From a virus (Duplodnaviria; Caudoviricetes), in IMG/VR virus record IMGVR_UViG_3300038524_000024, positions 40,988 to 104,987 of that record: a stretch of DNA of 64,000 nt; one strand, given 5' to 3'. Every line of letters starts with the position of its first letter. Within the stretch, counting starts at the first letter, position 1. This document shows positions 1 to 64,000 of this stretch, in pieces. Under the pieces are notes generated by a model. The model was given only the letters and a program-made list of their open reading frames with translations, searched no databases and was not told where the DNA came from. The translations under genes and the position numbers were made by a program.

Positions 1-457
1 AAACGGTCTGCCAAGTGAAATATGGAATGGTGTTACCAAAGAATTTACATATGGATTTCTAGATGGGCTATTATCGTCAGATGGAAATGTCGAAAAGGGT
101 AAAAGAGTCTCGCTTAGCAGTGCGCACGAAAATTTAGCAAAAGATGTTCTTGATTTACTTGGTTGCTTGGGCATACCTGCAAATATGCATAAAAGAACGA
201 CTAGGTTAAAAGGTTATGATAAAAGTTATATAAGTTATGTTATTCGTTTTCAAGGTCATTATCTTGATAATAAGTTTAGTTTAAGTAATAAATTTAAACA
301 AGACAGGTTGAACGAAATGTCGGAAGGGATAATTCATAAAAGTCCTTTGAGACATGTCGTATCTGTTACTAAAACACACCTTAGTGAAAACGTTTGGGAT
401 ATTACAGTATATGACGATACACATTGCTTCTCTCTACCAAATGTCATTACTGGAAAT
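1..457 (+). mobile_element. C-terminal part of LAGLIDADG intein in NrdJ
   Basis: GFLDGLLSSDG endonuclease motif (about 53-85); VWDITV..HCF...TGN then C(+1) at 458, the catalytic Cys of the NPCxE motif. Confidence 0.9.
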
Positions 458-1348
458 TGTAATGAGCAAAGTTTGGAATCAATGGAGACGTGTTTACTTG
501 TAGAATCGTTCCCAAATAGAAATGAAAACCTAGAAGATTATAAACGAACATTAAAATTCGCATATCTATACGCAAAAACAGTTACTCTTGCCAAAACTCA
601 TTGGGCAGAAACTAATCGTGTCATGCTGCGTAATCGCAGAATAGGTTTGTCTATGTCTGGAATCGCACAATTTATTACGGACAGAGGACTCAATGAATTA
701 AAACAGTGGTGCGAAGAGGGATATAAGACGATTAGATATTATGACAATGTATATTCCGATTGGCTTGCTATTCCCAAAAGCATAAAAGTAACTTCTGTAA
801 AACCATCTGGAAGTGTTAGTCTACTTGCCGGTGCAACTGCTGGTATACACTATCCAGAAAGTAATTTTTATATTCGTAGAATTAGATTGTCCAAATTCTC
901 AGACCTTATTGAGCCTTTACAAAACGCAGGATATAAGGTTGAGTTGGCTGTTGGGCAAGAGGATAGTACGGTGGTAGTTGAATTTCCAGTATCGCTAGGC
1001 AAGAAGATGAGAACCATCAAAGATTTGTCCATGTGGGAACAATTATCTCTCGGTGCTTTTATGCAAAGATATTGGTCTGATAATCAAGTATCACAGACCG
1101 TTACATTCAATCCAGAACTAGAAGGCAAAGATATTGCACATGCCTTAGAATACTTCCAATATCAATTAAAGGGGGTTAGCTTTCTTCCAACTTTGGAATA
1201 TGGTGCTTATCCACAAATGCCATATGAAGCTATTACCGAAGACGAATATAATGATATGATGAGTAAAATCACTGTAGCCGATTTTTCAAGTAATGTAGAA
1301 GATGCTATTGATGAAAAGTTTTGTAATAATGATGTTTGTACTATATAA
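1..1348 (+). CDS. nrdJ: Class II (AdoCbl-dependent, monomeric RTPR-type) ribonucleotide reductase, 5'-truncated, intein-containing
   Basis: Frame open from window start; CNEQSLE active-site Cys/Glu, RNRRIGLSMSG, TSVKPSGSVSLLAG, WSDNQVSQTVTF, C-terminal EKFCNNDVC redox pair. Confidence 0.93.
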   Translation, partial: NGLPSEIWNGVTKEFTYGFLDGLLSSDGNVEKGKRVSLSSAHENLAKDVLDLLGCLGIPANMHKRTTRLKGYDKSYISYVIRFQGHYLDNKFSLSNKFKQDRLNEMSEGIIHKSPLRHVVSVTKTHLSENVWDITVYDDTHCFSLPNVITGNCNEQSLESMETCLLVESFPNRNENLEDYKRTLKFAYLYAKTVTLAKTHWAETNRVMLRNRRIGLSMSGIAQFITDRGLNELKQWCEEGYKTIRYYDNVYSDWLAIPKSIKVTSVKPSGSVSLLAGATAGIHYPESNFYIRRIRLSKFSDLIEPLQNAGYKVELAVGQEDSTVVVEFPVSLGKKMRTIKDLSMWEQLSLGAFMQRYWSDNQVSQTVTFNPELEGKDIAHALEYFQYQLKGVSFLPTLEYGAYPQMPYEAITEDEYNDMMSKITVADFSSNVEDAIDEKFCNNDVCTI

Positions 1349-1366
1349 ACCGTTGTGGATAATGTT

Positions 1367-2404
1367 ATGAAATTTGGAAGTTTATTTACTGGAATTGGCG
1401 GTTTTGATTTAGGGCTTTCAAATTCTGGAATGGAATGTGTTTGGCAGGTTGAGAACGATATAACCTGCCAGCACATACTAAGAAAACATTTTAATGGCGT
1501 TAAATTATATGATAGTGTAAAAAAAGTAGGCAAAGACAACTTGGAAAAAATTGACCTTATCTGCGGTGGGTTTCCTTGCCAAGAGATATCTAAAGCCGGA
1601 AATCGTAAAGGATTAAATGGAAGACGTAGTGGTTTGTGGTTTGAATATAAAAGAATTATTAGCGAATTACTTCCCAGATGGGTTATTATCGAAAACGTTC
1701 CGGGTTTGCTCACATCTGGAAATGGAGAAGACTTCAAAGAAGTTATCGGGTCGATTGATGAATTCGGGTATGGTGTTTCGTGGAGAATCTTGGATAGCAA
1801 ATATTTCGGAGTCCCACAACGGCGCCGTAGACTCTTTATTGTCGGAAGTCTTGGAAACAACAGTTCATCCAAAGTACTTTTTGAGCGAAAGAGCCTGTCG
1901 GGGGATATTGAGGAGACTAATAACAAAAAAATCAAAAATCAAGAACCAAGAAGCAATTCTAATGGCTCTAAATCTTCGTATAACCCCACCATCTGGTGGA
2001 ATGGAAGTCAAATAAGCCAGACATTAGATAGGACACTATATAAAAGACAGGCAATGCCAGAAAAAGGAAGATTTCCTGCTGTTTTAACACCCATTTGGAG
2101 CAAATGCGAACTATGTGAGAACTATTGGTGTAATATTCATGGAATGCATGTTGCTGATTGTGATTGCCCACCGGTAGAAGATTTTACAGAATGCTCTACG
2201 TATCCATACGATGCTTCATTATTACGCTATCTAACCCCATTAGAATGTGAAAGGCTACAAGGATTTCCAGACAATTGGACTGTTTGTAATATAGATGATA
2301 TAGAAATATCTGATATGCAAAGATATAAAAAAATTGGCAATGCGGTTACTGTGAATGTAGCAGAATGGATTGGAAAGCGAATTATGGAAGTAGATAAACT
2401 TTAG
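1367..2404 (+). CDS. dcm: DNA (cytosine-5) methyltransferase
   Basis: FTGIGG (I), GGFPCQ (IV), ENV (VI), PQRRRR (VIII), RYLTPLECERLQGFP (IX), IGNAV (X); start at ATG 1367 or GTG 1355. Confidence 0.95.
   Translation: MKFGSLFTGIGGFDLGLSNSGMECVWQVENDITCQHILRKHFNGVKLYDSVKKVGKDNLEKIDLICGGFPCQEISKAGNRKGLNGRRSGLWFEYKRIISELLPRWVIIENVPGLLTSGNGEDFKEVIGSIDEFGYGVSWRILDSKYFGVPQRRRRLFIVGSLGNNSSSKVLFERKSLSGDIEETNNKKIKNQEPRSNSNGSKSSYNPTIWWNGSQISQTLDRTLYKRQAMPEKGRFPAVLTPIWSKCELCENYWCNIHGMHVADCDCPPVEDFTECSTYPYDASLLRYLTPLECERLQGFPDNWTVCNIDDIEISDMQRYKKIGNAVTVNVAEWIGKRIMEVDKL
1617..2015 (+). CDS. Overprinted alternative-frame ORF resembling the beta polypeptide of M.EcoHK31I-type MTases
   Basis: 132-aa ORF nested in dcm, AAGGA shortly before ATG, contains LSEVLE...PKYFLSERACRGILRR motif. 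Confidence 0.65.
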   Translation: MEDVVVCGLNIKELLANYFPDGLLSKTFRVCSHLEMEKTSKKLSGRLMNSGMVFRGESWIANISESHNGAVDSLLSEVLETTVHPKYFLSERACRGILRRLITKKSKIKNQEAILMALNLRITPPSGGMEVK

Positions 2405-2414
2405 GAGATTCAAT

Positions 2415-4094
2415 ATGAAAATAGATGTTCTTGATAAAGGATTTGTTGAATTACTTGAAAGTATGGGAAATGATAGTACCATTGCGGAATCTGCTAGAAT
2501 TTCTCATTTAGGTAAATATAAATCTGATGAAGCAGATGCAAAACTTATTCGTAATCTAATTACTAGTGGACACACTTCACCACTAGAACAGGTTGAATTT
2601 CGATTTCTTGTAAAAGCACCCATATATGTCGCAAGACAATGGATGAGACATCGTACATGGTGTTTAAGCGGGGATACAGAAATAACATTCAACAGACCAG
2701 ATAGGTGGAATCGAGGAATGCATACAAAGCAATCTCCATTTTTTGAAGACGGATTTACAATAAAAGAATTGTATAGGAAATGGAAGAAGTCTGAGCATTC
2801 AAAAAATATTATTTCATCTATGCTGCTACGTGTTTATGATGAAAAAGAAAAAAAATTCACTATTTCTAATATAAAAAATATTCTATATAGTGGTAAAAAA
2901 GAAGTATATAAAGTATCAACCCAATCTGGAAAAAATATTAAATGTTCAAAAGACCATCTGTTTTTAACTGGGGAAGGGTGGATGACACTAGAAAAAGCTC
3001 TCGGATTAGGGTTGACTAATAGCAATTTAGCGTATATGACTGATAATAGCGCTTTTTTTCTAACTAATGGAGAGCAATTATATCAAAACAAAGAGTGGCT
3101 ATCAAACCAAAAAACTTTAGGAAAATCTGTACAGGATATGGCAGATGAAGCTGGATGTGGATATTATACAATAAGAAAATATTTAAAGCGATATAACTTA
3201 CAGTTTGACCCTCTCCAAAATTTAGCAGGGGTCAACGGGAAACCAGTTTGGAACAAGGGTGTTTATGGATATAAATTAAATACTATTTTTTCAGAAGAAG
3301 CTAAAGAGAATATAAGAAAAGCTAGGGCGGGAGAAAAATCTAACTTTTGGAAAGGAGGAGTTACCTCTGATAGAGCACGCATAGCAGGGTGGGCCAACAG
3401 TGTTGCAAAAAGTGTGCATGCCAAGAATAATTATACATGCCAGCGTTGTAATAAGGTTGGAGGAAAGTTGCATGCCCATCATATTATGCCAGTAGTGGAT
3501 TATCCAGAAAAAGCATATGATATAAAAAATTTAACAACGCTATGTGAAAATTGCCACAAAGAGATTCATAATAATAAAGAAAACAATAGAAGCAAAAACG
3601 GAACTCCTTTACTGGCTAAATTAGAACAGATAGTTTCTATTGAGTATATTGGTATTGAAGATACATATGATATAGAAGTCGAAGGAGAACATCACAACTT
3701 TGTAGCAAACGGGTTTGTTGTTCATAACTCATACTCCGAGGTTTCCCGTAGATACACATCAAAAGATATGGATTTTTATGTACCACAATTTGACAGTGAG
3801 GATGCAAAACACGCCTATGAACAATCTGTTTTCATATCGCTCAACGCATACAATAAGCTTATAGAAGAGTCGGTCAGAAAAGAACAGGCAAGAGGTGTTC
3901 TACCAACTTGTTTGTACACAACATTCTATGCTAAAACGGACTTGCACAATCTCTTTCATTTTCTAGAGTTAAGACTAGGCAAAGGTGCTCAATATGAAAT
4001 AGTAGAATATGCTAATGCAATTTGTAAATTGATTGAGCCAATAGCACCAATAACAATGCAGATTTGGCTAGAAAAATATAATGTGGTAAAATAA
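2415..4094 (+). CDS. thyX: Flavin-dependent thymidylate synthase ThyX with intein
   Basis: GHTSPLEQ, ARQWMRHRTW-[intein]-SYSEVSRRY (RHRx7S motif restored on splicing), EQARGVLP, AQYEI. Confidence 0.95.
   Translation: MKIDVLDKGFVELLESMGNDSTIAESARISHLGKYKSDEADAKLIRNLITSGHTSPLEQVEFRFLVKAPIYVARQWMRHRTWCLSGDTEITFNRPDRWNRGMHTKQSPFFEDGFTIKELYRKWKKSEHSKNIISSMLLRVYDEKEKKFTISNIKNILYSGKKEVYKVSTQSGKNIKCSKDHLFLTGEGWMTLEKALGLGLTNSNLAYMTDNSAFFLTNGEQLYQNKEWLSNQKTLGKSVQDMADEAGCGYYTIRKYLKRYNLQFDPLQNLAGVNGKPVWNKGVYGYKLNTIFSEEAKENIRKARAGEKSNFWKGGVTSDRARIAGWANSVAKSVHAKNNYTCQRCNKVGGKLHAHHIMPVVDYPEKAYDIKNLTTLCENCHKEIHNNKENNRSKNGTPLLAKLEQIVSIEYIGIEDTYDIEVEGEHHNFVANGFVVHNSYSEVSRRYTSKDMDFYVPQFDSEDAKHAYEQSVFISLNAYNKLIEESVRKEQARGVLPTCLYTTFYAKTDLHNLFHFLELRLGKGAQYEIVEYANAICKLIEPIAPITMQIWLEKYNVVK
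2661..3728 (+). mobile_element. Intein (356 aa) carrying an HNH homing endonuclease
   Basis: Begins CLSGDT, block B CSKDHLF, ends TYDIEV..HHNFVANGFVVHN then S; internal CQRC..LHAHHI...NLTTLCENCHKEIH HNH and NUMOD3-like SEEAKENIR. Confidence 0.93.
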
Positions 4095-4095
4095 A

Positions 4096-4965
4096 ATGTC
4101 TATCTTAATCTCTAATGAAAACGAATTGACTCCAGTAGATAAAATAGATGATTTTTTATTTGTTAAAAGAGATGATTTATTTTCTCCTTCTGATGCATCC
4201 GGTATCAATGGAGGAAAATTGAGACAATGTATTTTTTTATTCAAGTCAATTGAGCATAAATACAATGGAGTTATAACAGGTTGTGGAATATATTCACCCC
4301 AATCGTCTATTGTATCTTATGTTGCAAATAAGCAAGAAATTCCTTCTTATGTTTGTGTGGGTGGAACTACGGAAAATAATATAAACCAAAACAAATATTT
4401 ATCTTTATCTAAAAAATATGGTGGTCAAATAATTAATTTAAAAAGTGGAAGACACACCGTGCTATATAAATACGCAAGAGAAAGAGCATTAAAAGATAAT
4501 TTGTTTTTAGTAAATTATGGTATCAACCTAGACGATAACATGCAATCCCTTATTTTTTCTACTGCTAATCAAGTAGAAAATATACCGGACTATTTAGACA
4601 ATTTATTTATTACTTGTGGTAGCGGAATCACGTCCATTGGAATATTAGTTGGAATAAAAAAGTTTGGCAAAAAGATAAGAAATATTACATTGATAGGAAA
4701 CGCACCAAATAGAACTTTAAAAATAAAAAAAACATTAGCACTAATAGAAAATTATGATAATCAATACAAAGGTGTTTTAGACATTGATTTTAATTTTATA
4801 GACAGATATTCAGATATAAATTTCAAATATGAAAGAAAAGAAACTGGATTTCTAAATGATATATTGCTGCACCCAAACTATGAAGCAAAAGCTTGGAATT
4901 ATATAGTTCAAGAAAAACTACTATCTGGAAAAAATTTATTTTGGATAGTGGGTGCTTCTTTATAA
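4096..4965 (+). CDS. PLP-dependent enzyme, fold type II (ACC deaminase / D-Cys desulfhydrase-like); candidate DNA-modification decarboxylase
   Basis: TPV..FVKRDDL...NGGKLRQ Schiff-base Lys, TCGSGITS phosphate loop, HPNYEAK, FWIVG. Confidence 0.8.
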   Translation: MSILISNENELTPVDKIDDFLFVKRDDLFSPSDASGINGGKLRQCIFLFKSIEHKYNGVITGCGIYSPQSSIVSYVANKQEIPSYVCVGGTTENNINQNKYLSLSKKYGGQIINLKSGRHTVLYKYARERALKDNLFLVNYGINLDDNMQSLIFSTANQVENIPDYLDNLFITCGSGITSIGILVGIKKFGKKIRNITLIGNAPNRTLKIKKTLALIENYDNQYKGVLDIDFNFIDRYSDINFKYERKETGFLNDILLHPNYEAKAWNYIVQEKLLSGKNLFWIVGASL

Positions 4966-4976
4966 GAAAGGAAATT

Positions 4977-6056
4977 ATGACATACAAATATCCAATTCAA
5001 CTAACTCAACAGTTTCGTTTTTGTGGAAATGCTTTTAGAATAGACCTATATCGGGGCTGTGATTTTGGTTGTAATTATTGTTTTGCTAACAATCGTGGGG
5101 GAGGCATTAAAAGAGGTTACGATAGCGCAGAGTTTGAACAAATTGAAAATTTATTTACAAAAGCTTTTGAATCTGATAAGGAATATAAAGATGTAACAGT
5201 TGAACTTATAAAGAGAAAAGTTCCCTTGCATTTGGGTGGCATGTCAGACCCTTTTCAAGAAAGAGAATTTGAACAAGAGTTGTCTTATAAATTGTTGGAA
5301 TTGACTAAAAAATATAATTATCCAATGATTATATCTACAAAGCAAGCTTTTTTACCTGAAAAATATTGGCAAGTTATGGATAATAAAATTCATGCTTTTC
5401 AAATTAGTTTAATGGGATATGATGATAGTTTCCTTACTCAATACGAGGGAAATACCCCAAGCGTAACAGAAAGAATTGCATTTATGCAAAAATTACATGA
5501 CAATGGTTTTTGGGTATCTCTACGTTTGCAACCACTAATTGATTTAGAACAAGCAAAGAAAGTTATTGTGGCTGTTGAAGATATTGTCAACTATATTACT
5601 ATAGAACATTTGAAAATTCCTAATGATAATGTGGAAATTAAAAATTTATTTGCGCCACTCATAAAAAAGGAGGATTATTATTATCCTAGTTCTATGCGTA
5701 ACATGGAACTTAAAAAAGAAATAAAAGAATATAATTTTAATGAAATTAAAAAAATTACTAAAATTAAATTAGGTGCTGGTGATAATGATTTACATTATTT
5801 GTCAGATAGCCGAAATTGCTGTGGTATTGATACGATTGGAAAAGAATTTGATAACTGGTTAAAATATAATTATACATATTTTGTGACAGGTGATAAAAGT
5901 GAAAATTTTGACGAGCTATGGTGTCCTGTCGGAAATGTAAATAGTTTTTTAAATCCTGATACTCGCATAAAGGGATTTAATAGTTACAAACAATATACAG
6001 ATGCATATACAGAAAAATTTGGTAAGAAAATGAAAAGGTTAGAAAAAAATGAATAA
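4977..6056 (+). CDS. Radical SAM protein (spore photoproduct lyase-like)
   Basis: GCDFGCNYCF CxxxCxxC, LGGMSDPFQ, ISTK, LRLQPLI, extra CCG; RBS AAGGAA before ATG 4977. Confidence 0.88.
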   Translation: MTYKYPIQLTQQFRFCGNAFRIDLYRGCDFGCNYCFANNRGGGIKRGYDSAEFEQIENLFTKAFESDKEYKDVTVELIKRKVPLHLGGMSDPFQEREFEQELSYKLLELTKKYNYPMIISTKQAFLPEKYWQVMDNKIHAFQISLMGYDDSFLTQYEGNTPSVTERIAFMQKLHDNGFWVSLRLQPLIDLEQAKKVIVAVEDIVNYITIEHLKIPNDNVEIKNLFAPLIKKEDYYYPSSMRNMELKKEIKEYNFNEIKKITKIKLGAGDNDLHYLSDSRNCCGIDTIGKEFDNWLKYNYTYFVTGDKSENFDELWCPVGNVNSFLNPDTRIKGFNSYKQYTDAYTEKFGKKMKRLEKNE

Positions 6057-6107
6057 ACTAGATTAAAATAAAATATAACTTTCATTTGAAACAATAAGGA
6101 GATTCTT

Positions 6108-6296
6108 GTGCGTGAAATAGACCGTATAGACCGTATCTTAAATATCATTTCAAAACTCTGGCATTTAATGCCAGATTTGAGATTGGGGCAACTTCTATAT
6201 AATTTCGCTGGCTTTGGAGATAAAGAGTATTATATAGAGGACGATATCACTGAAGAGAAATTGTTAGCATCACTGCGTAAGTGGAATATTGAATGA
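6108..6296 (+). CDS. Hypothetical phage protein (RxxxRI...W...PDLRLGQL type)
   Basis: RBS AAGGAG before GTG; motif typical of small phage proteins. Confidence 0.7.
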   Translation: MREIDRIDRILNIISKLWHLMPDLRLGQLLYNFAGFGDKEYYIEDDITEEKLLASLRKWNIE

Positions 6297-6514
6297 TAAT
6301 CGTAACTCATATATATTTATGTGAAGTTTGTGGTAAAATTGTATCAGAAACGGAAGAGGGTGACCGCTATGGTGATGACCTTATAGATTATCCTAAAGGT
6401 TGGATAGATGTTTGGAAAGATGATAACCACAATGTTGGATATTGCCCAGAATGTGCAGAGAAGCATAAGGATGAATATTATTTAGATAAAAATAGTTTTT
6501 ATTGGTACAAATAA
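6293..6514 (+). CDS. Hypothetical Zn-finger protein
   Basis: CEVC...CPEC; ATGA overlap with upstream gene. Confidence 0.65.
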   Translation: MIIVTHIYLCEVCGKIVSETEEGDRYGDDLIDYPKGWIDVWKDDNHNVGYCPECAEKHKDEYYLDKNSFYWYK

Positions 6515-6529
6515 AAGGAATCTATACAT

Positions 6530-6829
6530 ATGAGAAACGAACGTCAAGAAATATACTGTCACGAGTGTAATAATTATGTCCAATTTGTCATTGACCTTGA
6601 ACTGAACGGAAATCATGTTCTCAAATGTCCAAAATGTGGACACGAACATTGTCGAGTTGTTAGGAACGGAATTATCACCGATGACAGATGGGATAGTAGA
6701 AATGGAGCAGCGATATATGTATCAAGATATACAATCACTTATAGCACAAATTCATATGCTACAACTTCAAGTTTTGGTACAGCCACAAACGCTTTCATCT
6801 TTGCCTCTGCCGGCACCTCGGTAGCATAA
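6530..6829 (+). CDS. Hypothetical Zn-ribbon protein
   Basis: CHEC...CPKCGHEHC followed by S/T-rich tail. Confidence 0.65.
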   Translation: MRNERQEIYCHECNNYVQFVIDLELNGNHVLKCPKCGHEHCRVVRNGIITDDRWDSRNGAAIYVSRYTITYSTNSYATTSSFGTATNAFIFASAGTSVA

Positions 6830-6840
6830 AGGGAGATTCT

Positions 6841-7052
6841 ATGGGATGCGTAGAAAATGTAGATTACAATAAGTTTCCAAAACAAAGTAACTGGCTTAAT
6901 AAAAGAACAAGGGTTTGTTTTTTTATGGAGAAAAGACTCTTAAGGGTACAATCGTTAGAGAAGATATGGAAGACCCTTTTAGAACAATAATTCGCCTTGA
7001 TGATGGTAGATATATATTGTCTGGTGAATGTCAATATGCACCAGAAAATTAA
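6841..7052 (+). pseudogene. Small phage gene interrupted by a -1 frameshift in a T7 run
   Basis: GGAG RBS; MGCVENVDYNKFPKQSNWLNKRTRVCFF continues in the -1 frame as YGEKTLKGTIVREDMEDPFRTIIRLDDGRYILSGECQYAPEN*; T run 6918-6924. Confidence 0.55.
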
Positions 7053-7090
7053 TAAAATAAATGTTTATGACAACACTAAAGAAAGGTTTT

Positions 7091-7288
7091 ATGAAAATTA
7101 ATATAGAAGATATTCAAAAGAATCTCGACCAAAGAAAAGAGTGGAACCTTTTTCCACTTGATAAAATTGAATTCTATGAAAATGGTATAAAATTAGAGAT
7201 ACCCAAAGATGTGATTATTCAATTTGAAAAAATTGGATTGAATAATGTTGATTTCATTACTAGTGGATATTATAAAAGGAAATTTTAA
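7091..7288 (+). CDS. Hypothetical protein
   Basis: AAGG RBS before ATG 7091; fills operon gap. Confidence 0.6.
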   Translation: MKINIEDIQKNLDQRKEWNLFPLDKIEFYENGIKLEIPKDVIIQFEKIGLNNVDFITSGYYKRKF

Positions 7289-7289
7289 A

Positions 7290-7739
7290 ATGAATTCTGA
7301 ATATGGAGATTTCAAACTGAATTCTGAACTTGGTACTTATACGACAGAAAACTTTGAATTAACAAAGAAGCATGAATTTGATGCAGGACTTGATATTTGC
7401 TCAAATGAAAATATCGAAGTACCAGCAAGAGGAAGACAACTTGTGATGACCGGAATACGGTTGAAAATTCCAGATGGCATGGCAGGACTAGTCTGGTCTA
7501 GAAGCGGACTTTCTGTGGCACATGGTATAGAGGTGGGGGCAGGACTCATTGATTCCACATACAGAGGCGAGTTGGGTGTTTTACTATATAACCACTCTGA
7601 CGAACCATTTGAGATAAAGAAAGGCAATAGAATTGCCCAATTAGTTACTGTTCCAATTATGCTTGATACATATCTAAAAGTTGAAACATTAGATGAAACG
7701 CCTCGTGGTGAAGGTGGATTTGGTAGTACAGGAATATAA
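7290..7739 (+). CDS. dut: Trimeric dUTPase
   Basis: AGLD, SRSGL, GLIDSTYRGE, RIAQL, RGEGGFGSTG motifs 1-5. Confidence 0.96.
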   Translation: MNSEYGDFKLNSELGTYTTENFELTKKHEFDAGLDICSNENIEVPARGRQLVMTGIRLKIPDGMAGLVWSRSGLSVAHGIEVGAGLIDSTYRGELGVLLYNHSDEPFEIKKGNRIAQLVTVPIMLDTYLKVETLDETPRGEGGFGSTGI

Positions 7740-7748
7740 TAAAAAGGT

Positions 7749-7783
7749 AAAAAATACCCCCTCGAATGAGGGGGTATTTTTTT
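7749..7783. terminator. Bidirectional intrinsic terminator between convergent operons
   Basis: AAAAAATACCCCCTC-GAAT-GAGGGGGTATTTTTT. Confidence 0.88.
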
Positions 7784-8306
7784 ATTTCGTAGTTCTACGT
7801 GCATATTTGCGTTTTGGTGCTTCTAATGGTATCAAGTTAGCATTCTTCATTTGAACAATAAGTTCAGAATTATATTGCTGTGCTACCCCTAAATCAAATT
7901 TTAACTCGTTGATAACTTCATCTTGTTCACACATTTTTATTTCTTGTTCGTTGAGTCGAATATTATTGTTATCGATTACTATAGCCTGTTCTTTAATAGT
8001 TAGGTCTTGAGCCACTACTTTACTATTAAGCTCATCATGTGCGAACTTAAGCATATTATAATCATTTTCAAGTCGTAAAAGCTTAGTCTGCAAATTAACC
8101 GCTTGTTCTGCAGCTTTGTTGGCAATATCATTAAACTGGTCAGCTACAGACGCTTCTTTTCCCAGGTTGTCTAAATCCATACCCTTTGCTTCTTTAGGCA
8201 TCATTTTTGCGGCTCTTATCCATGTAAATACAGCACCTATTATAGCTATAATACTCGATATTAAAACGCCTGTTACTAAATTAATTAGTTCTTGAGTAAG
8301 TTCCAT
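7782..8306 (-). CDS. Membrane-anchored coiled-coil protein (possible lysis accessory)
   Basis: One N-terminal hydrophobic helix, then long heptad-rich region. Confidence 0.65.
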   Translation of the reverse strand: MELTQELINLVTGVLISSIIAIIGAVFTWIRAAKMMPKEAKGMDLDNLGKEASVADQFNDIANKAAEQAVNLQTKLLRLENDYNMLKFAHDELNSKVVAQDLTIKEQAIVIDNNNIRLNEQEIKMCEQDEVINELKFDLGVAQQYNSELIVQMKNANLIPLEAPKRKYARRTTK

Positions 8307-8638
8307 TGGTCGCTCCTTCCGCTTTTTTCAAACTTATATCTTATGCGCGTCCATACGGAAATAACAGATGAAGATAATAAGATAACAGGTCTGATAAATA
8401 AACTTCCAAATGAATACGGCACTATTGGGGCAACTTCAATAAAAGACTCTTCTAATATATAACCAAATATTATTGACCACACAAAGCAAATTAAAGTTTG
8501 GACTAATACAATCCAATCAAACTGCCTTTTAAGTTTTGTCAGTAATAGATATCCTACTCCGAACCGTACTCCTATAACTGAGAATACAACAATAAGTACT
8601 GCTAAAAAGTTGACAACTATATCATATATAGTTTTCAT
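8285..8638 (-). CDS. Small multi-pass membrane protein
   Basis: About 3 hydrophobic segments; SFGSLFIRPVILL shared with neighbour. Confidence 0.65.
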   Translation of the reverse strand: MKTIYDIVVNFLAVLIVVFSVIGVRFGVGYLLLTKLKRQFDWIVLVQTLICFVWSIIFGYILEESFIEVAPIVPYSFGSLFIRPVILLSSSVISVWTRIRYKFEKSGRSDQWNLLKN

Positions 8639-8988
8639 AGGTATTTACTTCCCTTCCTTCGATATTTTTCTTTTTCACTTATTGCTGTACCAACAGCTTC
8701 CAGTACAATTAGCGGGCGTATAACTACCGCTCCGAAAGAACTATTATCTATTATGTGTCCTTTTATAGCTGTTGCAACAATGATATAGCTAAATGCAACT
8801 ACAAATAGAAAACTAACAATTAAATTAAAATATGTGGTAAAAAATACTTTACCTGTAGTTTGTTTATAAAGTAAAATCCTTTTTATGTTATAGTATATTG
8901 CCCATGAAAACCAAAAGATGATATTTGCGGATAAAACTATTGCTATAACATCTAGCGCCGAATTTACTGTTTGTGCTCCTTCTATCAT
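8635..8988 (-). CDS. Small multi-pass membrane protein, paralog of 8285-8638
   Basis: About 3 hydrophobic segments; SFGAVVIRPLIVL; same 117-aa length. Confidence 0.65.
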   Translation of the reverse strand: MIEGAQTVNSALDVIAIVLSANIIFWFSWAIYYNIKRILLYKQTTGKVFFTTYFNLIVSFLFVVAFSYIIVATAIKGHIIDNSSFGAVVIRPLIVLEAVGTAISEKEKYRRKGSKYL

Positions 8989-9074
8989 TTCAAATCCTTT
9001 CTTTTTTGTCTATATCACTCTTTTTCATAAGCAAAATGAAAAGCCCTACTCAAATATATCTTTCGGGCTTATAT

Positions 9075-9410
9075 CTATTCAACAATTGGTGTTGCTACAT
9101 ATAATGTATCACAAACTGTAAACCTAACTTTTTCAGTAAAAAACTTTCCTAAACTGGTTTCCACATAGCCTTGAACAGACCATACACCCGGTTTATCTAT
9201 ATCCCCGGCAATAGTTATGTATTGTAATATTCCATCAGCTCCATTCGTTAAGAATGAAGCTGATTTTTGCACCTTTGTTCCAGATGGATTCTGGAAATAA
9301 ATATATTTTACATCAGCGGTATCAAGGTCAATTGGTACGCCGTTTTCATCGGTGACAATTAGCCTAAATATAGTACCAACGTCCCCTTTATGAATAAATG
9401 TTGACTTCAT
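9075..9410 (-). CDS. BppU N-terminal-like baseplate/virion protein
   Basis: GDVGTIFRLIVTD...PIDL...DGILQY...GDID..G.W..QGYV pattern. Confidence 0.6.
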   Translation of the reverse strand: MKSTFIHKGDVGTIFRLIVTDENGVPIDLDTADVKYIYFQNPSGTKVQKSASFLTNGADGILQYITIAGDIDKPGVWSVQGYVETSLGKFFTEKVRFTVCDTLYVATPIVE

Positions 9411-10654
9411 GTAACCTCCGATAATTCTTTATATGCTGGCATCTCTATTCTTGTTATTATTTTTACGGTTTCAATAACTTGCATATTCATAATAACAAAG
9501 AATTCAGCAATTTCAGCGTATTGGATATCTACCAGAATGTGTCCATCTAATTGTATAGCGGACGTATTTATAATAACAACTTCTCCTTCGTGTGTTACAT
9601 GAGTAACATCTCCAGATACTTCAAAACTAGATGCACAAGCAATATCGGACAATCCATTATGGATAGCATGTAATATACTTCCAATCACATTTAGTTCTGA
9701 AATTATAATAGTATTTGATTCGCCTTCTAGTTCGCTAGCACTTAATCCACTGACACCTAGTAATGATGTTATTGTAATATTGGTTGAACCATCAATAACC
9801 ATATGGTCAACACTACCAATAACCTCTAATGTGGAGTTAGATATAATACTAGAAATTCCTTCTCGTATGCTAAAAATGCTAGCTTCAATCAGCATTGTAG
9901 AATCATTAACAATAGTTACTGAACCCTCATGTACAGGGTGGACAATCGTAGCAGATATTACTAGCGTAGAATTTTGCTCAACACCAGCAACGCCTTCAAG
10001 TAAACTACCTACTTCGGGGAAAGCCAACAGATTAGATGTAACATCAATAGTAGTAGCGCCCTCGTGAATGGGATGTAAGACAGTCGCAGATACTTCTAAT
10101 GTAGAAGTTCCTGAAACAATCGAAGCGCCCTCCTGCGTTCCCGCTTTCCAAGACGATGCTAAAAGTTCTGATGTGACATTAATTGTAGCTAAACCTTCAT
10201 GAGTAGCATGTGTGACACTTCCCACCAAATCCATAGTGGATTGAGTGGTAATATCATTTGAGCCTTCCAAAATTGCATGTGTGATTGTATCTTCTGTCAA
10301 TAACTGAGAAGTTACAACAATTGCGGTTGCTCCTTCCAAAGTTTGATGTAATACTGTATCAACAGCGACTAAACTAGAAGTCGTATCAATCGCAGCACTA
10401 GCCTCAATGGTTTCGGCGCTTACTCCAACAGCTAATAATTCACTTGTGATGACAATAGCTGTTTCCCCTTCGAATACCGCATGAGTAACCGTTCCAACTA
10501 AGTCAGTATAGAGTTCACCAGATGTATTTAATGAGGAAGTGCCGCTAATTGAGGCACTTCCTTCATGGTAAACTCCAGTAACAGGGAAATAGTTGAGTGC
10601 CCAATAGTATTGTCCAAAATAACTATCTGATAAAATATAGGTTTCTTTCGCCAT
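9407..10654 (-). CDS. Repeat-rich acidic virion protein
   Basis: Many imperfect about 26-aa repeats (HEGxAxIxxTSxL); located in tail accessory region. Confidence 0.65.
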   Translation of the reverse strand: MAKETYILSDSYFGQYYWALNYFPVTGVYHEGSASISGTSSLNTSGELYTDLVGTVTHAVFEGETAIVITSELLAVGVSAETIEASAAIDTTSSLVAVDTVLHQTLEGATAIVVTSQLLTEDTITHAILEGSNDITTQSTMDLVGSVTHATHEGLATINVTSELLASSWKAGTQEGASIVSGTSTLEVSATVLHPIHEGATTIDVTSNLLAFPEVGSLLEGVAGVEQNSTLVISATIVHPVHEGSVTIVNDSTMLIEASIFSIREGISSIISNSTLEVIGSVDHMVIDGSTNITITSLLGVSGLSASELEGESNTIIISELNVIGSILHAIHNGLSDIACASSFEVSGDVTHVTHEGEVVIINTSAIQLDGHILVDIQYAEIAEFFVIMNMQVIETVKIITRIEMPAYKELSEVT

Positions 10655-10675
10655 AGACACTCCTTTCTAACAGGT

Positions 10676-11380
10676 TTATACTGTTAAGGTTATTTTTGAC
10701 CTGTTTCCATTTGTATCTACTGCTGCCACAATTACATTTGATGTATCGTCAACACCACGGAAAGTTATAGTTGAAGTTTCTGCTCCGGACACTTTTCCAG
10801 CTAATGCTGATGCGAGTATTTTAAGAATTTGGCGCATGGTGTAAGTACCAACAACAAGTTCATCTAAAATAGAATCTACTGCTTCGGATGTTAATTTTAC
10901 CCCGTCCGTGCCAGTGTCGGCGAGGATGTCCGTGACCGCCTTGCTGAATGAGCCAGCGGAAGTGTGTCCGCTTGTGGCTTCATCCAGAACAGCATCAGCA
11001 ATGCCAGCCGCAGTAACGCCAGCCAACTCGTACCAGCGCGTAGTCCAGTCAGGCGTTGAAGTGTCGCCAGCCAAGCCGTCAACGTAAACCGTCAGCACGT
11101 CCCCATTCCTGACCGTAATCCAGCCGGATTGCCCTGAGATTGCGGTCAAGCCCGAAGCCGCCGCCATCGTGGTTTGTGGCAGGATGCGGTAAGCCGAGCC
11201 AGAGCCGCCGATTTGCCGAGTAACGTACATAACGTAATCGCCGTTGCCAGCCACCGCGTCTATTGATACATCGCACATGACGAGCTTATCGCCTGTTGAC
11301 GTGTAAGCCCCGACTGCGGTTGCCGCGCTGATGTCTACATTCGTTCCTGTATCCGTTTCTAAGTGCGTAAATACTGCCAT
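10676..11380 (-). CDS. Virion structural protein, compositionally chimeric
   Basis: GGAGG RBS; GC-rich 5' part and AT-rich 3' part switching near 10900. Confidence 0.7.
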   Translation of the reverse strand: MAVFTHLETDTGTNVDISAATAVGAYTSTGDKLVMCDVSIDAVAGNGDYVMYVTRQIGGSGSAYRILPQTTMAAASGLTAISGQSGWITVRNGDVLTVYVDGLAGDTSTPDWTTRWYELAGVTAAGIADAVLDEATSGHTSAGSFSKAVTDILADTGTDGVKLTSEAVDSILDELVVGTYTMRQILKILASALAGKVSGAETSTITFRGVDDTSNVIVAAVDTNGNRSKITLTV

Positions 11381-11392
11381 ATAAGCCTCCGA

Positions 11393-11668
11393 TTAGCCGC
11401 AACGTGATAAGAGTTGCGCGATGAATGCCGCCGATTGAAGTTCCGCGTTTGCCGAGCCCCACAGGTTGTAGATTGCCTCCGCCTGTTCCGCGTTCACGCC
11501 CAAATAACCTGATAACGCGGTGAAGTCCGAGCCGAGTGCCACTTGGTCAAGCACGAGCTTGAGATTGTTCCAGTCATCCTTGACCCGTCGAAGCGAGTCA
11601 ATCGCCGAGCGTGCCTGTGACGAAATGCGGCTTGCTGATGTTGAGATGTCGATGTATGCTGATGCCAT
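11393..11668 (-). CDS. Hypothetical protein (GC-rich patch)
   Basis: GGAGG RBS, 91-aa helical protein. Confidence 0.7.
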   Translation of the reverse strand: MASAYIDISTSASRISSQARSAIDSLRRVKDDWNNLKLVLDQVALGSDFTALSGYLGVNAEQAEAIYNLWGSANAELQSAAFIAQLLSRCG

Positions 11669-11691
11669 AATAGTTCCTCCGATTAGATTGA

Positions 11692-12396
11692 TTAAAGTGC
11701 CGCTATTGCGGTGTGTAAGTTCCCCATTTGTGTATCAGTCAAGCCTGTGCTATAAAAGGCAATGGCGTAGATGTAGCCGCCAAAATATCTGCTTGGTGCG
11801 GCATAACGATTGCCAATAACAAGCCCATCTGAGTTTATTGCGGCAGTCTTAGCTATGTTTCCGACATCCGTGCCGTTAAAATAGGTATCAACTCGTGTCC
11901 CTGCGACCAAATTCATACCTACGGTGTGGTCTACTTTTATGTTGCCGCCAAAGTAGTTAGATAATAGCGTTCCGTCCCAGTCATAGTTTATGCTATTGCC
12001 TACATAGTTGGAGTTGATTTGGATTAGTGCAGTATAGGCATGGTTAAGGTTAAAGTAGTTTCCATAATCCCCTCCGCCCGCACCAGCCGCTTTTGCAAAT
12101 ACAATTACAGCACCGATATTGCCAGTGTACGGCACAAGCAGTTGCGCGTCACCCGAAAAGTCCCATCCAGTTTCGCTTGCCCAACTTGGCGATGTGCCTT
12201 CTGCTGCGTTGTTGCCATTTCCCGACAAATCCACCAGCGAAGCCGCATAACTCGCCGCCCCCTTCGGTTGGTACGCTGCCACGCAACTGGTTATCGTGCC
12301 GCTCAAATCCCACCAGCCGCCGCCAGCAACCGCCGCCTGACTTGACGGTTGGAATGTAGGCGAGAACGTGCGCCCGAATACTGAACCGAATGTCAT
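11692..12396 (-). CDS. Concanavalin A / LamG-like virion protein
   Basis: AGGAGG RBS before ATG 12396; AAYQPKGAASYAASLVDLSGNGN, IGNR...YFGGYIYAIAFYS. Confidence 0.72.
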   Translation of the reverse strand: MTFGSVFGRTFSPTFQPSSQAAVAGGGWWDLSGTITSCVAAYQPKGAASYAASLVDLSGNGNNAAEGTSPSWASETGWDFSGDAQLLVPYTGNIGAVIVFAKAAGAGGGDYGNYFNLNHAYTALIQINSNYVGNSINYDWDGTLLSNYFGGNIKVDHTVGMNLVAGTRVDTYFNGTDVGNIAKTAAINSDGLVIGNRYAAPSRYFGGYIYAIAFYSTGLTDTQMGNLHTAIAAL

Positions 12397-19325: not shown

Positions 19326-22300
19326 TTAACTAAGCGCGGTAATAATACCATCTACAACCGACATATTTATTTGACCACCAGCATAACTTCTAAAACTTCT
19401 ATTCGCAGTTACACTACTATGATAATGATAATAACTAGCATATGTGCTTCCGTGACTATGACTGGTAGGGGCATATCTTGTATCGTTTTGTGCTATGCTC
19501 CATATTTGATTTGAGGCGTCAGTACCATCTTTCCAAAGACCTCCTGTTATCAGTGTTCCGGTTCCTGTATTTATTCTAAGATAGTTTGCAGTCAAGAATG
19601 TTGTTCCGACAGAGCCTAATGATAAAGTGGTAGCAGATGTAACATTTCCTTCTCCTGAAAACCACAATCCGATACCAAGTCCGCTACCTGCCTCCCCAAT
19701 ACTCCCCCCGGGGAATACAAATCTTCCACCGGAAACACGATACCCACTTAAACTTCCTGCGGTAAATCCACCTAAACTATACCCAGTACCAGTATTGATT
19801 CTATCAACGGGAACAGGCGCATTAGTAATTTGGCTCCAATCAACCGCACCCAAAAGTCTTGTAGCACTTATTGTTCCGGTTGTACTAGTAATATCCCCGG
19901 TAAATGTTCCAGTCGCAGCAGATAATGACCCGCTGAATACACCACTTCCTTTAATGGTCAAAACACCATTCTCCCATTTTAGATAACTTGTATCGGTGGC
20001 ACTACCAAGATAAAAATTGCCAGCATTGTCCATATATGTTTTCCACGATGCTATGCCAGTCGTTGGATTTTTATATACATATCCTAACTTTTCATAATCA
20101 ATATGCAAACCTGTTTCGGTATTTCCAGCTTGAACATATCTTGGTTTGCTAGCAACACTGTCCCAAGCATATCCTGTAGACTGAGAAATATCGCCCGTGA
20201 ATATTCCACTACCTTTAATTTTTAAAGTGCTAGTCGCAGAAGTCCACGATAAATAGTTAGCATTGTTTTCAGCACCAAGATAAAAGTTACCAGCATTATC
20301 CATATATGTTTTCCAACCAACTGGAGCTTCATAATATCCTAAGCGGTCAGACGATATGTGTAATCCTTTCGTTGGAGCATCTTCATCTATAACATACAAT
20401 GGCTTTCCTGCTAAGGTATCCCAAGTTTCTGGCGGTGGTATTACGGGATATGGTGGCAAATCATAAATAGATGTGTGAGATATTCTTATGTTTCCATCCG
20501 AACCTATACTAAGTACTTCCGCCCCACCAGTCTTTTTGATTACAATACCAACTTCTGGATTTATATCAATTACATTTTTAGCATTAGATAATTCTAGGTT
20601 CATATTTTTTGCTTTTAAACCAGAGGCATCTACTAAAAATGTTGCCAATTCAGAATTAACATTGTTTTGAATTACTAGGCTATTACCAGCAATCATTCTT
20701 CCAACCAGCGCTTCGGCAACTACCCCATATAGATTTTGACCACCAAAATTTATTTCTCCCAGAGCCATTTTCACACTCTGCCAATTATTATTGGTAAAAG
20801 CTATTTGGTTGCTAGTGAGCCAAATTTGATTTGGTTCATATCCAGTTACTGTCTTTTGCCTTCCAATAAGCCCATTTGGTGTCAACGAAATTTCCTGGTC
20901 TTTGGTCGCCATTAGCGTTGTCAACGAAGCGTTTAACGCTTCGTCTATATACTGATTTACTGCTTGTTGACCACTTTCTACCCAATCGCTCCAGTCCCCA
21001 GCGCTATATTTTACCTGCGAAATTGTTCTATCGGCATCTGAATTGATATCTCCTAATTCAATTTCCGAATTAGCTAATCTCAGCCTATTACTCAATAAGA
21101 ATTTGAAGTCAGTTGGTACATCATAATTATAGTCAAATCCCAAAATTATGGGAACAAACAACGTATCGTTATTTCCATCTTCAAGTTGCACATATAAAGA
21201 GCTTCCAAGTGCTAACTGGTCAATAAAAGGTTGGAAATATTTTATAAATATAAAATTATGCAAATCAAGAGAAAATTCATATGATGGTTGTGATACCTTA
21301 TTAGAAATAATCACCCCTTGTGCATATAAATCTAAGGCCATTTGTTGTACTTGCTGTAACGTCATCATGTCTGTTTGCAAGAAGTTGCGATTATCATACG
21401 CACCAGCAAAAATAAAATTATTTAATTGAGCCAATTGCGCTATTGTAAAATTCGCCTCTATTTTGCAAGTGTTATTGATTACAACAAGTTCATTTTGCTT
21501 AGTGCCTATTTGCAGTTGTTTAGCCTCTATCTCGGCTTGTTTATTGTCTACGGCAAGTTGCGCAGCAATAACCGCATTTTGTTCAACCGACGTGTTAGTT
21601 TTACCAGAATCTATAGCTAACTTCAAAGTATTTTGTTTTATAAGCAACTGCGTTTGTAGATATTCAAGCCCTGTCGTTGTATTGGTACGCAAATCATATA
21701 TTTCTCGCTGATATGTCATTAGTTGTGTTAATTTAGTGGCATATGATGATTGATAACCTGCTATTTTTGTTTTCCAAGCATCAATAGCCGTAATTAGGTC
21801 GCTAGACATCCACTCAAGATTTTTATAGTAATCAAAATTATAAATAATGTCATCCCCGGTTGGATTTACCTGATTGATGGTTAAATCATCTTTACCATAT
21901 ACACTTAATGCAGTTATAATATTATCGGAATTTTCATCAATACTAACATTTTCTAGCAAATTTTCATAAGATAAATAAATATCAGTTTTTGTTATGGCAT
22001 TTGTCAATGCTTGTGCGTTGATTTTTTTGTTGAATGTATCAAATGTAAAAACACATTGATATGCTTGTTCCATTTCTTTCATTAAGAAAGTATAGACAGT
22101 CGTATCTTTTTCGTCAAAAGTTCTATATAGGTTATATAATGATGAATCAAGTGTTCCAAGAGACCATCCCGGCATATAAATAAGCAACTTATGCATCAAA
22201 CTGTTTGCTTGATTGGACGCATCATAAAATTTCCAAGTGCCTTTTATGTTTAATATTTTACGAAATGATAGTTCAAATTCTAATGATTTAGCTTCAACGT

Positions 22301-22589
22301 CTTTGTAAATCTTTGCTCCATCAGATTTTTCTATTACCTTAGTAATAATAAACATGCCAATATCTGGAATCTGTATTCTGCGCTTGCCAACAAGATATGA
22401 ATAATATGGCATAGCAGTACCATTAATAGTTTTTGGAGCAGAAAATTTAATAGTAGAAACCGCATTATATCTTAAACTTACTTGTCTATCGTAAATGCCA
22501 CCTATATTGAAAAGTTTAGTCCCGTCTGGATTGCATAATATATAATCTGGCACCTCATATTGTGAAAAAGAATCGAATTTTTGTATCAT
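19326..22589 (-). CDS. Tal / baseplate hub (prophage tail endopeptidase-like) protein
   Basis: Follows Dit; LCNPD, ITALSVYG..LTINQVNPTG, coiled coil, F.....W...KMALG, internal WKTYMDNAGNFYLG repeat. Confidence 0.8.
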   Translation of the reverse strand: MIQKFDSFSQYEVPDYILCNPDGTKLFNIGGIYDRQVSLRYNAVSTIKFSAPKTINGTAMPYYSYLVGKRRIQIPDIGMFIITKVIEKSDGAKIYKDVEAKSLEFELSFRKILNIKGTWKFYDASNQANSLMHKLLIYMPGWSLGTLDSSLYNLYRTFDEKDTTVYTFLMKEMEQAYQCVFTFDTFNKKINAQALTNAITKTDIYLSYENLLENVSIDENSDNIITALSVYGKDDLTINQVNPTGDDIIYNFDYYKNLEWMSSDLITAIDAWKTKIAGYQSSYATKLTQLMTYQREIYDLRTNTTTGLEYLQTQLLIKQNTLKLAIDSGKTNTSVEQNAVIAAQLAVDNKQAEIEAKQLQIGTKQNELVVINNTCKIEANFTIAQLAQLNNFIFAGAYDNRNFLQTDMMTLQQVQQMALDLYAQGVIISNKVSQPSYEFSLDLHNFIFIKYFQPFIDQLALGSSLYVQLEDGNNDTLFVPIILGFDYNYDVPTDFKFLLSNRLRLANSEIELGDINSDADRTISQVKYSAGDWSDWVESGQQAVNQYIDEALNASLTTLMATKDQEISLTPNGLIGRQKTVTGYEPNQIWLTSNQIAFTNNNWQSVKMALGEINFGGQNLYGVVAEALVGRMIAGNSLVIQNNVNSELATFLVDASGLKAKNMNLELSNAKNVIDINPEVGIVIKKTGGAEVLSIGSDGNIRISHTSIYDLPPYPVIPPPETWDTLAGKPLYVIDEDAPTKGLHISSDRLGYYEAPVGWKTYMDNAGNFYLGAENNANYLSWTSATSTLKIKGSGIFTGDISQSTGYAWDSVASKPRYVQAGNTETGLHIDYEKLGYVYKNPTTGIASWKTYMDNAGNFYLGSATDTSYLKWENGVLTIKGSGVFSGSLSAATGTFTGDITSTTGTISATRLLGAVDWSQITNAPVPVDRINTGTGYSLGGFTAGSLSGYRVSGGRFVFPGGSIGEAGSGLGIGLWFSGEGNVTSATTLSLGSVGTTFLTANYLRINTGTGTLITGGLWKDGTDASNQIWSIAQNDTRYAPTSHSHGSTYASYYHYHSSVTANRSFRSYAGGQINMSVVDGIITALS

Positions 22590-22596
22590 CTTATTA

Positions 22597-63874: not shown

Positions 63875-63934
63875 GTTTTTTAGGCTTTTTGGCGGTTTTT
63901 GGTCTTGATTTTGGCCTTTTTTGGGGGTGTTTTT

Positions 63935-64000
63935 CGGTCTGGGTGGTCGGTCTGGGTGGTCGGTCTGGGTGGTCGGTCTGGGTGGTCGGTCTGGGTGGTC
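63935..64000. repeat. Perfect 13-bp tandem repeat CGGTCTGGGTGGT, at least 5 copies, runs off the window
   Basis: Units start at 63935, 63948, 63961, 63974, 63987. Confidence 0.95.

Follow-up and report, generated by a model that had tools for sequence, protein, structure and literature searches.

What do a pyridoxal 5'-phosphate (PLP) enzyme and a radical S-adenosylmethionine (SAM) enzyme do side by side in a phage in which no known entry enzyme of DNA hypermodification was found? The question is raised by a stretch of 64,000 nucleotides (the window), positions 40,988 to 104,987 of IMG/VR record IMGVR_UViG_3300038524_000024 and the right-hand 64 kb of this 104,987-bp phage record. Here, adjacent genes on the + strand encode a fold-type-II PLP enzyme of 289 amino acids (aa) at 4096-4965 and a radical SAM (rSAM) enzyme of 359 aa at 4977-6056, the latter with a core resembling spore photoproduct lyase (SPL). 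An earlier reading made from the sequence alone (the sequence-only reading) had drawn attention to the two genes, and we found both in place with the motifs that it had quoted. Our answer, in which our confidence is somewhat above even, is that the pair constitutes an autonomous DNA base-hypermodification module bypassing the known entry steps, in which the rSAM enzyme would build an amino-acid-type adduct for the PLP enzyme to decarboxylate.

To our knowledge, every thymidine hypermodification pathway described to date starts from 5-hydroxymethyluracil and proceeds via a DNA kinase and an amino acid:DNA transferase. Entry is through a dUMP hydroxymethylase or a thymine dioxygenase, followed by a 5-hydroxymethyldeoxyuridine (5-hmdU) DNA kinase and then by the amino acid:DNA transferase. 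The pathway of Pseudomonas phage M6 to 5-(2-aminoethyl)deoxyuridine (5-NedU) comprises the ADDT protein gp51, the PLP decarboxylase gp52, the rSAM isomerase gp53 and the 5-hmdU DNA kinase gp54/gp55 (Lee et al. 2021, PMC8989533). A published metavirome survey employed the kinase as its query (PMC8989533), and kinase-free systems would therefore have been missed. Our search of the literature available to us for a phage system combining rSAM and PLP enzymes without ADDT and kinase returned no description.

The PLP enzyme is related to DNA-acting phage decarboxylases

On the evidence of its sequence, the PLP enzyme belongs to the family of phage decarboxylases acting on amino-acid:nucleobase conjugates and not to the metabolic 1-aminocyclopropane-1-carboxylate (ACC) deaminases. 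The protein carries the motifs KRDDL, NGGKLRQ, HPNYEAK and FWIVG and matches Pfam PALP (3.6e-7) and phrog_3650 (5.4e-42). BLASTP aligned it over its full length with gp226 of phage ViI (5e-25, 27% identity) and with M6 gp52 (4e-12), and a profile of 25 PLP homologs recovered gp226 at 2e-37 and gp52 at 5e-15. The kinship with the M6 decarboxylase proposed in the sequence-only reading was thus borne out, also by an hhalign comparison with gp52 (98.6%). By contrast, the ACC deaminase-type model TIGR01275 scored 31.8 bits against a cut-off of 289.4 bits, and the match was confined to residues 20-90.

Decarboxylation of O-seryl-thymidine in DNA has been demonstrated for gp226, the function of gp52 has likewise been shown, and the catalytic Schiff-base lysines are K92 in gp226 and K36 in gp52 (PMC8989533). 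Lys41 of the window enzyme, located in NGGKLRQ, aligns with K36 of gp52 (SFSKIRG) and with the matching lysine of gp226 (NGSKLRQ), and is predicted to be the Schiff-base lysine. It is among the 41 columns that are invariant across the 25 homologs, together with, for example, the CGSG loop at 174-177 and Y262. The AlphaFold2 (AF2) model of the protein has a pLDDT of 93.5.

A tblastn search of phage records with the PLP enzyme gave 346 matches, mostly in Ackermannviridae, and the match in Salmonella phage Vi01 is orf00226, that is, gp226. An exhaustive profile search (E at most 1e-30) placed 285 clusters at 50% identity in the family. In a maximum-likelihood tree the window enzyme falls into a well-supported clade of metagenomic phage proteins, with gp226 and gp52 outside this clade on long branches.

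Enzymes of fold type II act mostly on small molecules, and in a PDB profile match (7e-9) ACC deaminase and D-cysteine desulfhydrase were the best solved relatives of the PLP enzyme. The pair could thus belong to nucleotide-pool or small-molecule metabolism and act on free nucleotides, amino acids or cofactor precursors by chemistry of the lysine 2,3-aminomutase type. The similarity of the PLP enzyme to the DNA-acting gp226, however, far exceeds that to any metabolic family. We return to this explanation with the gene neighborhoods below.

The radical SAM enzyme is SPL-like by fold

As judged from its predicted structure, the rSAM enzyme is SPL-like by fold, and its sequence indicates that it is not a true SPL. 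SPL was the top structural match of the AF2 model (pLDDT 89.9) in Foldseek (7e-9). Residues 1-269 of the model superimposed by VIA onto SPL 65-341 with a Z score of 18.5 and a root-mean-square deviation of 2.9 A over 245 residues, and the VIA score of SPL was about 2 Z units above that of any other rSAM enzyme. At the sequence level, the protein matches Pfam Radical_SAM (1.6e-9), the NCBIfam PA0069 family (2.4e-15) and phrog_13321 (2.4e-16); the PA0069 and Rv2578c rSAM families of NCBIfam, both of which it matches, are uncharacterized. No SPL model (TIGR00620, PF20903) was among the NCBIfam and Pfam matches at the thresholds used, and the match to the SPL profile from the PDB was not significant (E 0.44). 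The designation as SPL-like in the sequence-only reading therefore stands for the fold and for a remote relationship to gp53, but not in the sense of a true SPL by hidden Markov model (HMM).

The cluster motif CX3CX2C is CDFGCNYC, with C28-x3-C32-x-Y34-C35. In an alignment of 35 homologs, C32, Y34, C35, GGxSDPFQ, STK, C16, C281 and C282 are invariant, and C28 is conserved in 90% or more of the sequences. The SPL-like core (1-269) is followed by a family-specific C-terminal region of approximately 90 residues that has no SPL counterpart and contains an invariant CCG.

Profile and pairwise comparisons show the rSAM enzyme and the M6 isomerase gp53 to be remotely related. With hhalign we obtained 96% and an E value of 3e-9 over 178 core columns, including an SDPF motif common to both proteins. 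A genome-wide search of M6 gave a match at 4.5e-5. In pairwise BLASTP the two proteins were 20% identical (E 0.002), and their N- and C-terminal regions were unmatched.

Could the rSAM enzyme instead serve in DNA repair, as a lyase reversing thymine dimers or other radical-reversible lesions, the PLP enzyme being unrelated or accessory? SPL as the top structural match, the tyrosine in C-x3-C-x-Y-C that is also present in CMGHCHYC of SPL, the wide occurrence of the rSAM gene as a stand-alone phage gene, and the label "DNA repair photolyase" given to it in some sources are all compatible with this. On the other hand, neither the SPL HMMs nor the PDB profile matched, the C-terminal third with the invariant CCG is without an SPL counterpart, and a repair role gives no reason for a translationally coupled homolog of a PLP decarboxylase in more than 80 loci. 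In addition, most of the hosts are anaerobes from gut and sediment, where exposure to UV is low, and the rSAM genes have methyltransferases as neighbors. We regard repair of this kind as quite improbable.

Known entry enzymes are absent from the phage record and its relatives

We searched for the known entry enzymes by six-frame HMM comparison in the window's own 105-kb record and in 34 other records carrying a PLP enzyme of the same clade. An rSAM gene accompanies the PLP gene in 33 of these other records; completeness is 90% or more in 18, terminal repeats are present in 3, and proviruses account for 4. The own record contained no match to ADDT (PF18724), HMUDK_HMUD1 (PF18748), Tet_JBP (PF12851), HMUD2 (PF18747), aGPT-Pplase3 (PF18746) or the tRNA-dependent transferase domain PF09924 (LPG_synthase_C). 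A ThyA-type synthase/hydroxymethylase (PF00303) was absent from the own record, the sole record searched for it, and Pfam scans of the open reading frames (ORFs) of at least 140 aa in the early region of this genome revealed no known entry enzymes either. Among the other records, counts were 0/34 for each of ADDT (PF18724), HMUDK_hel (PF18723), Tet_JBP, PF09924, aGPT-Pplase3 and HMUD2 (PF18747). The positive controls responded, M6 and ViI strongly with both ADDT and HMUDK_hel, and ViI with HMUD2. Five further records with more distant pairs of rSAM and PLP genes were also without ADDT.

The sequence-only reading had reported no hydroxymethylase, kinase or transferase in the window; this holds for the whole 105-kb record and extends to TET/JBP. 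Because the entry enzymes are absent from the own record and from the 34 others (ADDT, kinase, TET/JBP and tRNA-type transferase alike), the undescribed modification route that it had suggested is also our best reading of the pair. A tRNA-dependent aminoacyl transferase (PF09924), a candidate suggested by a PLP fusion, was rejected upon its absence from all 35 records.

A canonical, M6-like tailoring pathway, in which the rSAM enzyme isomerizes and the PLP enzyme decarboxylates an amino-acid-thymine conjugate, could nevertheless operate here if its start were cryptic, that is, if the host supplied the enzymes that install the conjugate or if phage proteins that have diverged beyond recognition did so. 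Such tailoring is the sole experimentally known role of the PLP family and of a phage SPL-like rSAM enzyme (PMC8989533). Moreover, ten ORFs of at least 140 aa in the own genome have no Pfam match, six of them no PHROG match either, and the record is rated 86% complete. Yet the 35 records, among which 18 have a completeness of 90% or more, yielded no known entry family, whereas the controls were detected. No gene of the dUMP hydroxymethylase or dioxygenase type was present among the scanned conserved neighbors in the approximately 50-kb phages and prophages, and across lineages the pair has no conserved third gene. The rSAM gene also occurs alone in complete genomes without a PLP gene, and the listings of rSAM-only loci show no ADDT. 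A cryptic start is thus, in our estimate, unlikely.

The PLP gene is almost always accompanied by a radical SAM gene

The adjacency of the PLP and rSAM genes is far beyond chance. Searching IMG/VR with the PLP profile yielded 80 viral loci, of which 73 were evaluable, and an rSAM gene of the window's family adjoins the PLP gene in 72 of the 80 (72/73 of those evaluable). In seven of the eight exceptional loci the sequence reaches less than 600 nt upstream of PLP; the eighth, L090, is the sole evaluable PLP locus without an rSAM gene and is uninformative, its record being 28% complete. In viruses the usual order is rSAM then PLP, with the rSAM gene immediately upstream and mostly overlapping the start of the PLP gene. 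An rSAM gene is likewise present at all PLP loci from bacterial genomes (12/12, mostly Clostridia and one Bacteroidota isolate) and from metagenome assemblies (3/3). The closest relative of the window's PLP enzyme, 54% identical and from a metagenome assembly, has the order PLP then rSAM as in the window.

The partner rSAM enzymes of the PLP clade come from different subfamilies and are 22-57% identical to that of the window; the rSAM family as a whole therefore provides partners for the PLP enzyme. An attempt to find longer, fused forms of the PLP enzyme by a word index had found none, which is weak evidence, and the exhaustive profile search later did find fusions, although none to an rSAM enzyme.

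Strict anaerobes (Clostridia) predominate among the hosts, as would suit an enzyme sensitive to oxygen. Prophages of two cultured strains, Clostridium sp. D33t1_170424_F3 and Parachryseolinea silvisoli QH1ED-6-2, carry the pair, which in the Clostridium strain is located on NZ_JADPEG010000011.1 at about 76.9-78.8 kb.

The dependence is not mutual. The sequence-only reading had treated the two genes as a symmetric pair, but whereas the PLP gene nearly always occurs with an rSAM gene, the rSAM gene is mostly alone. The closest relative by rSAM enzyme (L006, 91% identical) has a 21-kb locus without homologs of the window's methyltransferase, ThyX or PLP enzyme, and its whole 68-kb record, 56% complete, contains no PLP gene.

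Fusions and conserved neighbors point to DNA

Proteins of the PLP family are found fused to an N6/N4 DNA methylase, to ADDT, to HMUD2 plus ADDT, to ParB_N and to a DUF2156-like domain, and these domain partners point to DNA as the substrate. A fusion to a kinase also exists. Stand-alone rSAM genes of other phages often lie among DNA methyltransferase genes, and in one locus (L007) a Mom-like gene is located beside the rSAM gene.

In phages of approximately 50 kb, genes for ParB_N, rSAM, PLP, a 172-aa protein, a terminase-like ATPase, portal and Mu-F follow one another in this order. The ParB_N protein, approximately 190-210 aa long and encoded approximately 1-2 kb upstream of PLP, is present in 58 of the 80 loci (L015-L094; e.g. 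L017 7791-8426), and the PLP protein P0217 is fused to ParB_N. ParB proteins activate phage thymine dioxygenases on double-stranded DNA (PMC13229309), and by analogy the ParB_N protein near the pair may have a similar helper role. The own genome encodes no ParB_N, and ParB_N was accordingly discarded as an essential third component.

These neighborhoods also bear on an action in small-molecule metabolism as set out above. In the window, the pair lies between ThyX and dUTPase and downstream of NT5C, dNMP kinase and nrdJ, a position that would suit such a role. However, the nucleotide-gene neighborhood is not conserved, and most loci place the pair between ParB_N and packaging genes. That PLP-family proteins are fused to DNA methylase, ADDT and ParB domains, and that the rSAM enzyme has its nearest fold in a DNA enzyme, argues in the same direction, and we find metabolic action of the pair improbable.

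Modification of RNA (tRNA or rRNA) instead of DNA is, in our judgment, highly improbable. Many rSAM enzymes do modify RNA, and RlmN and TYW1 are among the weaker structural matches of the window enzyme, but the nearest characterized relatives of both proteins act on DNA, the fusions and neighbors are DNA methylases and ParB, and most of the phages bearing the pair have small genomes of the temperate type.

The cytosine methyltransferase adjacent to the pair had led the sequence-only reading to connect the pair with this enzyme or with ThyX, and hence with cytosine as a possible target. This found no support. A C5-methyltransferase is encoded in only 7 of the 34 other records of the PLP clade, and the neighboring methyltransferase is therefore not part of the system; the locus with the 91%-identical rSAM enzyme has no homolog of the window's methyltransferase or ThyX. 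As a provider of the substrate, the C5-methyltransferase was rejected on the same count. The adjacent C5-methyltransferase, ThyX and dUTPase are thus not conserved partners of the pair.

We found no third gene that is conserved with the pair across lineages. Four small ORFs between the rSAM gene and the dUTPase gene (6108-7288, + strand) were considered as conserved partners or electron donors and dismissed, given that they have no homologs in 83 rSAM loci. A second rSAM-like gene of the own genome, P0242 (contig 22133-23119, phrog_9298), was likewise dismissed as the missing partner, with a homolog in 1 of the 34 records. It is part of a second DNA-modification island outside the window (contig C1 20399-26978; L003 5399-11978), which encodes a 208-aa methyltransferase-like protein (phrog_799), a second C5-methyltransferase, a Dam-type methyltransferase, P0242 itself (328 aa, with GCIRNCYFC, no Pfam match and phrog_9298 at 3.9e-62) and the PAPS-reductase-like P0243 (phrog_424).

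Two arrangements in other records are worth describing. A phage SAM synthetase is encoded directly downstream of a window-type rSAM gene in one lineage (L014 5132-7549, and L040); the rSAM enzyme of L014/L040 has an acidic N-terminal extension of approximately 80 aa, and a PLP gene follows approximately 3.5 kb further on. In L188 (1723-6696), the 765-aa protein P0307 is a fusion of a DUF2156/LPG_synthase_C-like domain with a PLP domain and is preceded by a ParB-like protein and a DNA methyltransferase-like protein with an SPPY motif. The eight genes that were checked on this contig of 12.5 kb include no rSAM gene, and the arrangement may represent a further, different kinase-free variant.

A proposed route to a modified base

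From the homologies, the fold, the pairing and the absences described above we infer the substrate, donor and product as follows. The rSAM enzyme would act on DNA via a 5'-deoxyadenosyl radical and create or rearrange a base side chain, the product of which would end in an alpha-amino acid with a free amine. This side chain could be donated by a free amino acid or by SAM, from its aminocarboxypropyl part. The PLP enzyme would then bind the amine via Lys41 and remove CO2 to leave a positively charged amine on the base, which would block host restriction enzymes. Where the rSAM enzyme is alone, phages would stop at the carboxylated adduct.

A more specific form of this proposal, plausible but to be held tentatively, is that the rSAM enzyme itself initiates the modification. 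It would abstract hydrogen from a canonical base, for example from the C5-methyl group of thymine, and the resulting radical would be joined to an amino-acid-type fragment, so that no 5-hydroxymethyl intermediate, kinase or transferase would be involved and the PLP enzyme would provide an optional trim to the amine. SPL is a DNA enzyme and handles the same allylic radical that hydrogen abstraction from the C5-methyl group of thymine would give.

Several observations weigh against an autonomous module. The phage collection holds no cultured phage with a close homolog of either protein; PLP matches there are at most 36% identical, and the rSAM enzyme has only three matches, all of them metagenomic. 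Homology to gp53 is confined to the rSAM core. The searches with aGPT-Pplase3 and Tet_JBP were made without a positive control, and an entry gene may have been missed in the own record, which is rated 86% complete. The position of the pair amid nucleotide-pool genes (NT5C, dNMP kinase, nrdJ, ThyX and dUTPase) fits an action on free nucleotides. A PLP gene lies within 10 kb at only 2 of 26 loci with window-type rSAM genes and at only 6 of 57 loci with more distant ones. Finally, four complete genomes, three of them with terminal repeats, hold an rSAM gene and no PLP gene, with positive controls that did respond. The rSAM enzyme may thus have a self-contained role, for example in repair, with the PLP enzyme merely accompanying it. 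The same asymmetry is the pattern expected if the rSAM enzyme performs a self-sufficient step and the PLP enzyme a dependent tailoring step.

If the rSAM enzyme does start the modification, this would represent a new DNA chemistry (radical C-H functionalization of a DNA base), a new way in which restriction-resistant DNA arises, and a possible tool for the site-directed derivatization of DNA. It would also constitute a new two-enzyme, or one-enzyme, hypermodification route that is widespread in phages of anaerobic Firmicutes. The prophages in cultured strains make the pair directly testable.

Gene order and other features of the phage record

The pair is embedded in an operon-like block on the + strand, as the sequence-only reading had described it. 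The block begins in the window with the C terminus of nrdJ, which contains a LAGLIDADG intein (2-1348), followed by the C5 cytosine DNA methyltransferase (1355-2404) and ThyX with an HNH intein (2415-4094), all assigned by Pfam, and by the PLP and rSAM genes; as far as the rSAM gene, neighboring genes of the block are 1-11 nt apart. The dUTPase gene (7245-7739; Pfam dUTPase, 1.2e-35) is the last gene of the block. The methyltransferase, ThyX and dUTPase genes are context and lie outside the proposed module.

The rSAM ORF had been listed as 4893-6056 with a TTG start. The true start is almost certainly the ATG at 4977-4979, because homologs begin with MTYKYP and because a Shine-Dalgarno sequence, AAAGGA (4967-4972), directly follows the TAA stop codon of the PLP gene (4963-4965). 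The segment at 4-6 kb is more AT-rich than its surroundings, with a GC content of 28.7% versus 33-37% in the flanks.

Directly before nrdJ, upstream of the window, are genes for an NT5C-type 5'-deoxynucleotidase and a dNMP kinase (contig C1 38177-39267; L004 8177-9267), which could reshape the nucleotide pool. Up to four inteins are present in replication and nucleotide-metabolism genes of this one phage: LAGLIDADG in nrdJ, HNH in ThyX and HNH in DnaE, with a weak LAGLIDADG signal in the primase-helicase (intein genes at window 2-1348 and 2415-4094, and at contig C1 29348-32227 and 33700-37743). The early region also encodes a DUF2828/DUF7788 protein with a VWA domain, Ro60/TROVE-like (contig C1 13740-15236; L002).

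Fourteen contigs carry the identical PLP protein, the longest of 105,184 bp. Repeat arrays are located at both ends of the record, with three GGCACG-N4-TTGCAAC-like units on the left (contig C1 1-120) and a tandem GGTCGGTCTGGGTG run to the last base on the right (window ~63900-64000), and they probably explain why assemblies stop at approximately 105 kb. A megablast search of window positions 1-12000 against cultured phages gave no match. Of the sequencing runs listed as containing the sequence, none is of RNA; the DNA runs come from one terrestrial study, probably the source, and from wastewater, the latter with partial shares.

Comparison with known systems

Phage M6 and the window have in common an adjacent PLP enzyme and SPL-like rSAM enzyme. 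The PLP enzymes of the two are full-length homologs with the same catalytic lysine, predicted in that of the window, and between the rSAM cores there is remote homology that takes in the SDPF motif. In contrast to M6, no ADDT, kinase or source of 5-hmdU was found in the window's record, and no ADDT or kinase in the 34 related records. The gene order varies, and the rSAM family of the window is mostly stand-alone. Whereas gp53 receives its substrate, N-alpha-GlyT, from an ADDT encoded in the same genome, none is encoded in the own record or the 34 related ones. The isomerase gp53 comprises 480 aa with an N-terminal extension, which the window enzyme of 359 aa lacks, and the latter has its own C-terminal CCG region. 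A second Fe-S cluster is present in gp53, with about 9 Fe per protein; in the window enzyme, the alignment alone reveals three extra invariant cysteines, C16, C281 and C282.

In the pathway of Salmonella phage ViI to 5-(2-aminoethoxy)methyldeoxyuridine (5-NeOmdU), gp226 acts on O-seryl-thymidine and is the closest characterized relative of the window PLP enzyme, although at 424 aa it contains insertions in comparison to the 289 aa of the latter. ViI employs the ADDT gp247 and the kinases gp67 and gp243, and a search of its genome detected no rSAM enzyme.

SPL (SplB; PDB 4fhc and related structures) has the fold and the C-x3-C-x-Y-C motif in common with the window rSAM enzyme. Unlike SplB, the window enzyme is phage-borne and coupled to a PLP enzyme, its C-terminal 90 residues are unrelated, and there is no significant profile match between the two. 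Similarly, ACC deaminase and D-cysteine desulfhydrase (TIGR01275; PDB 1f2d, 4d8t) have the fold-type-II fold, the N-terminal K-R-D-D-L region and the lysine motif in common with the window PLP enzyme, but the latter scores far below the cut-off of this family and clusters instead with the phage DNA-modification enzymes.

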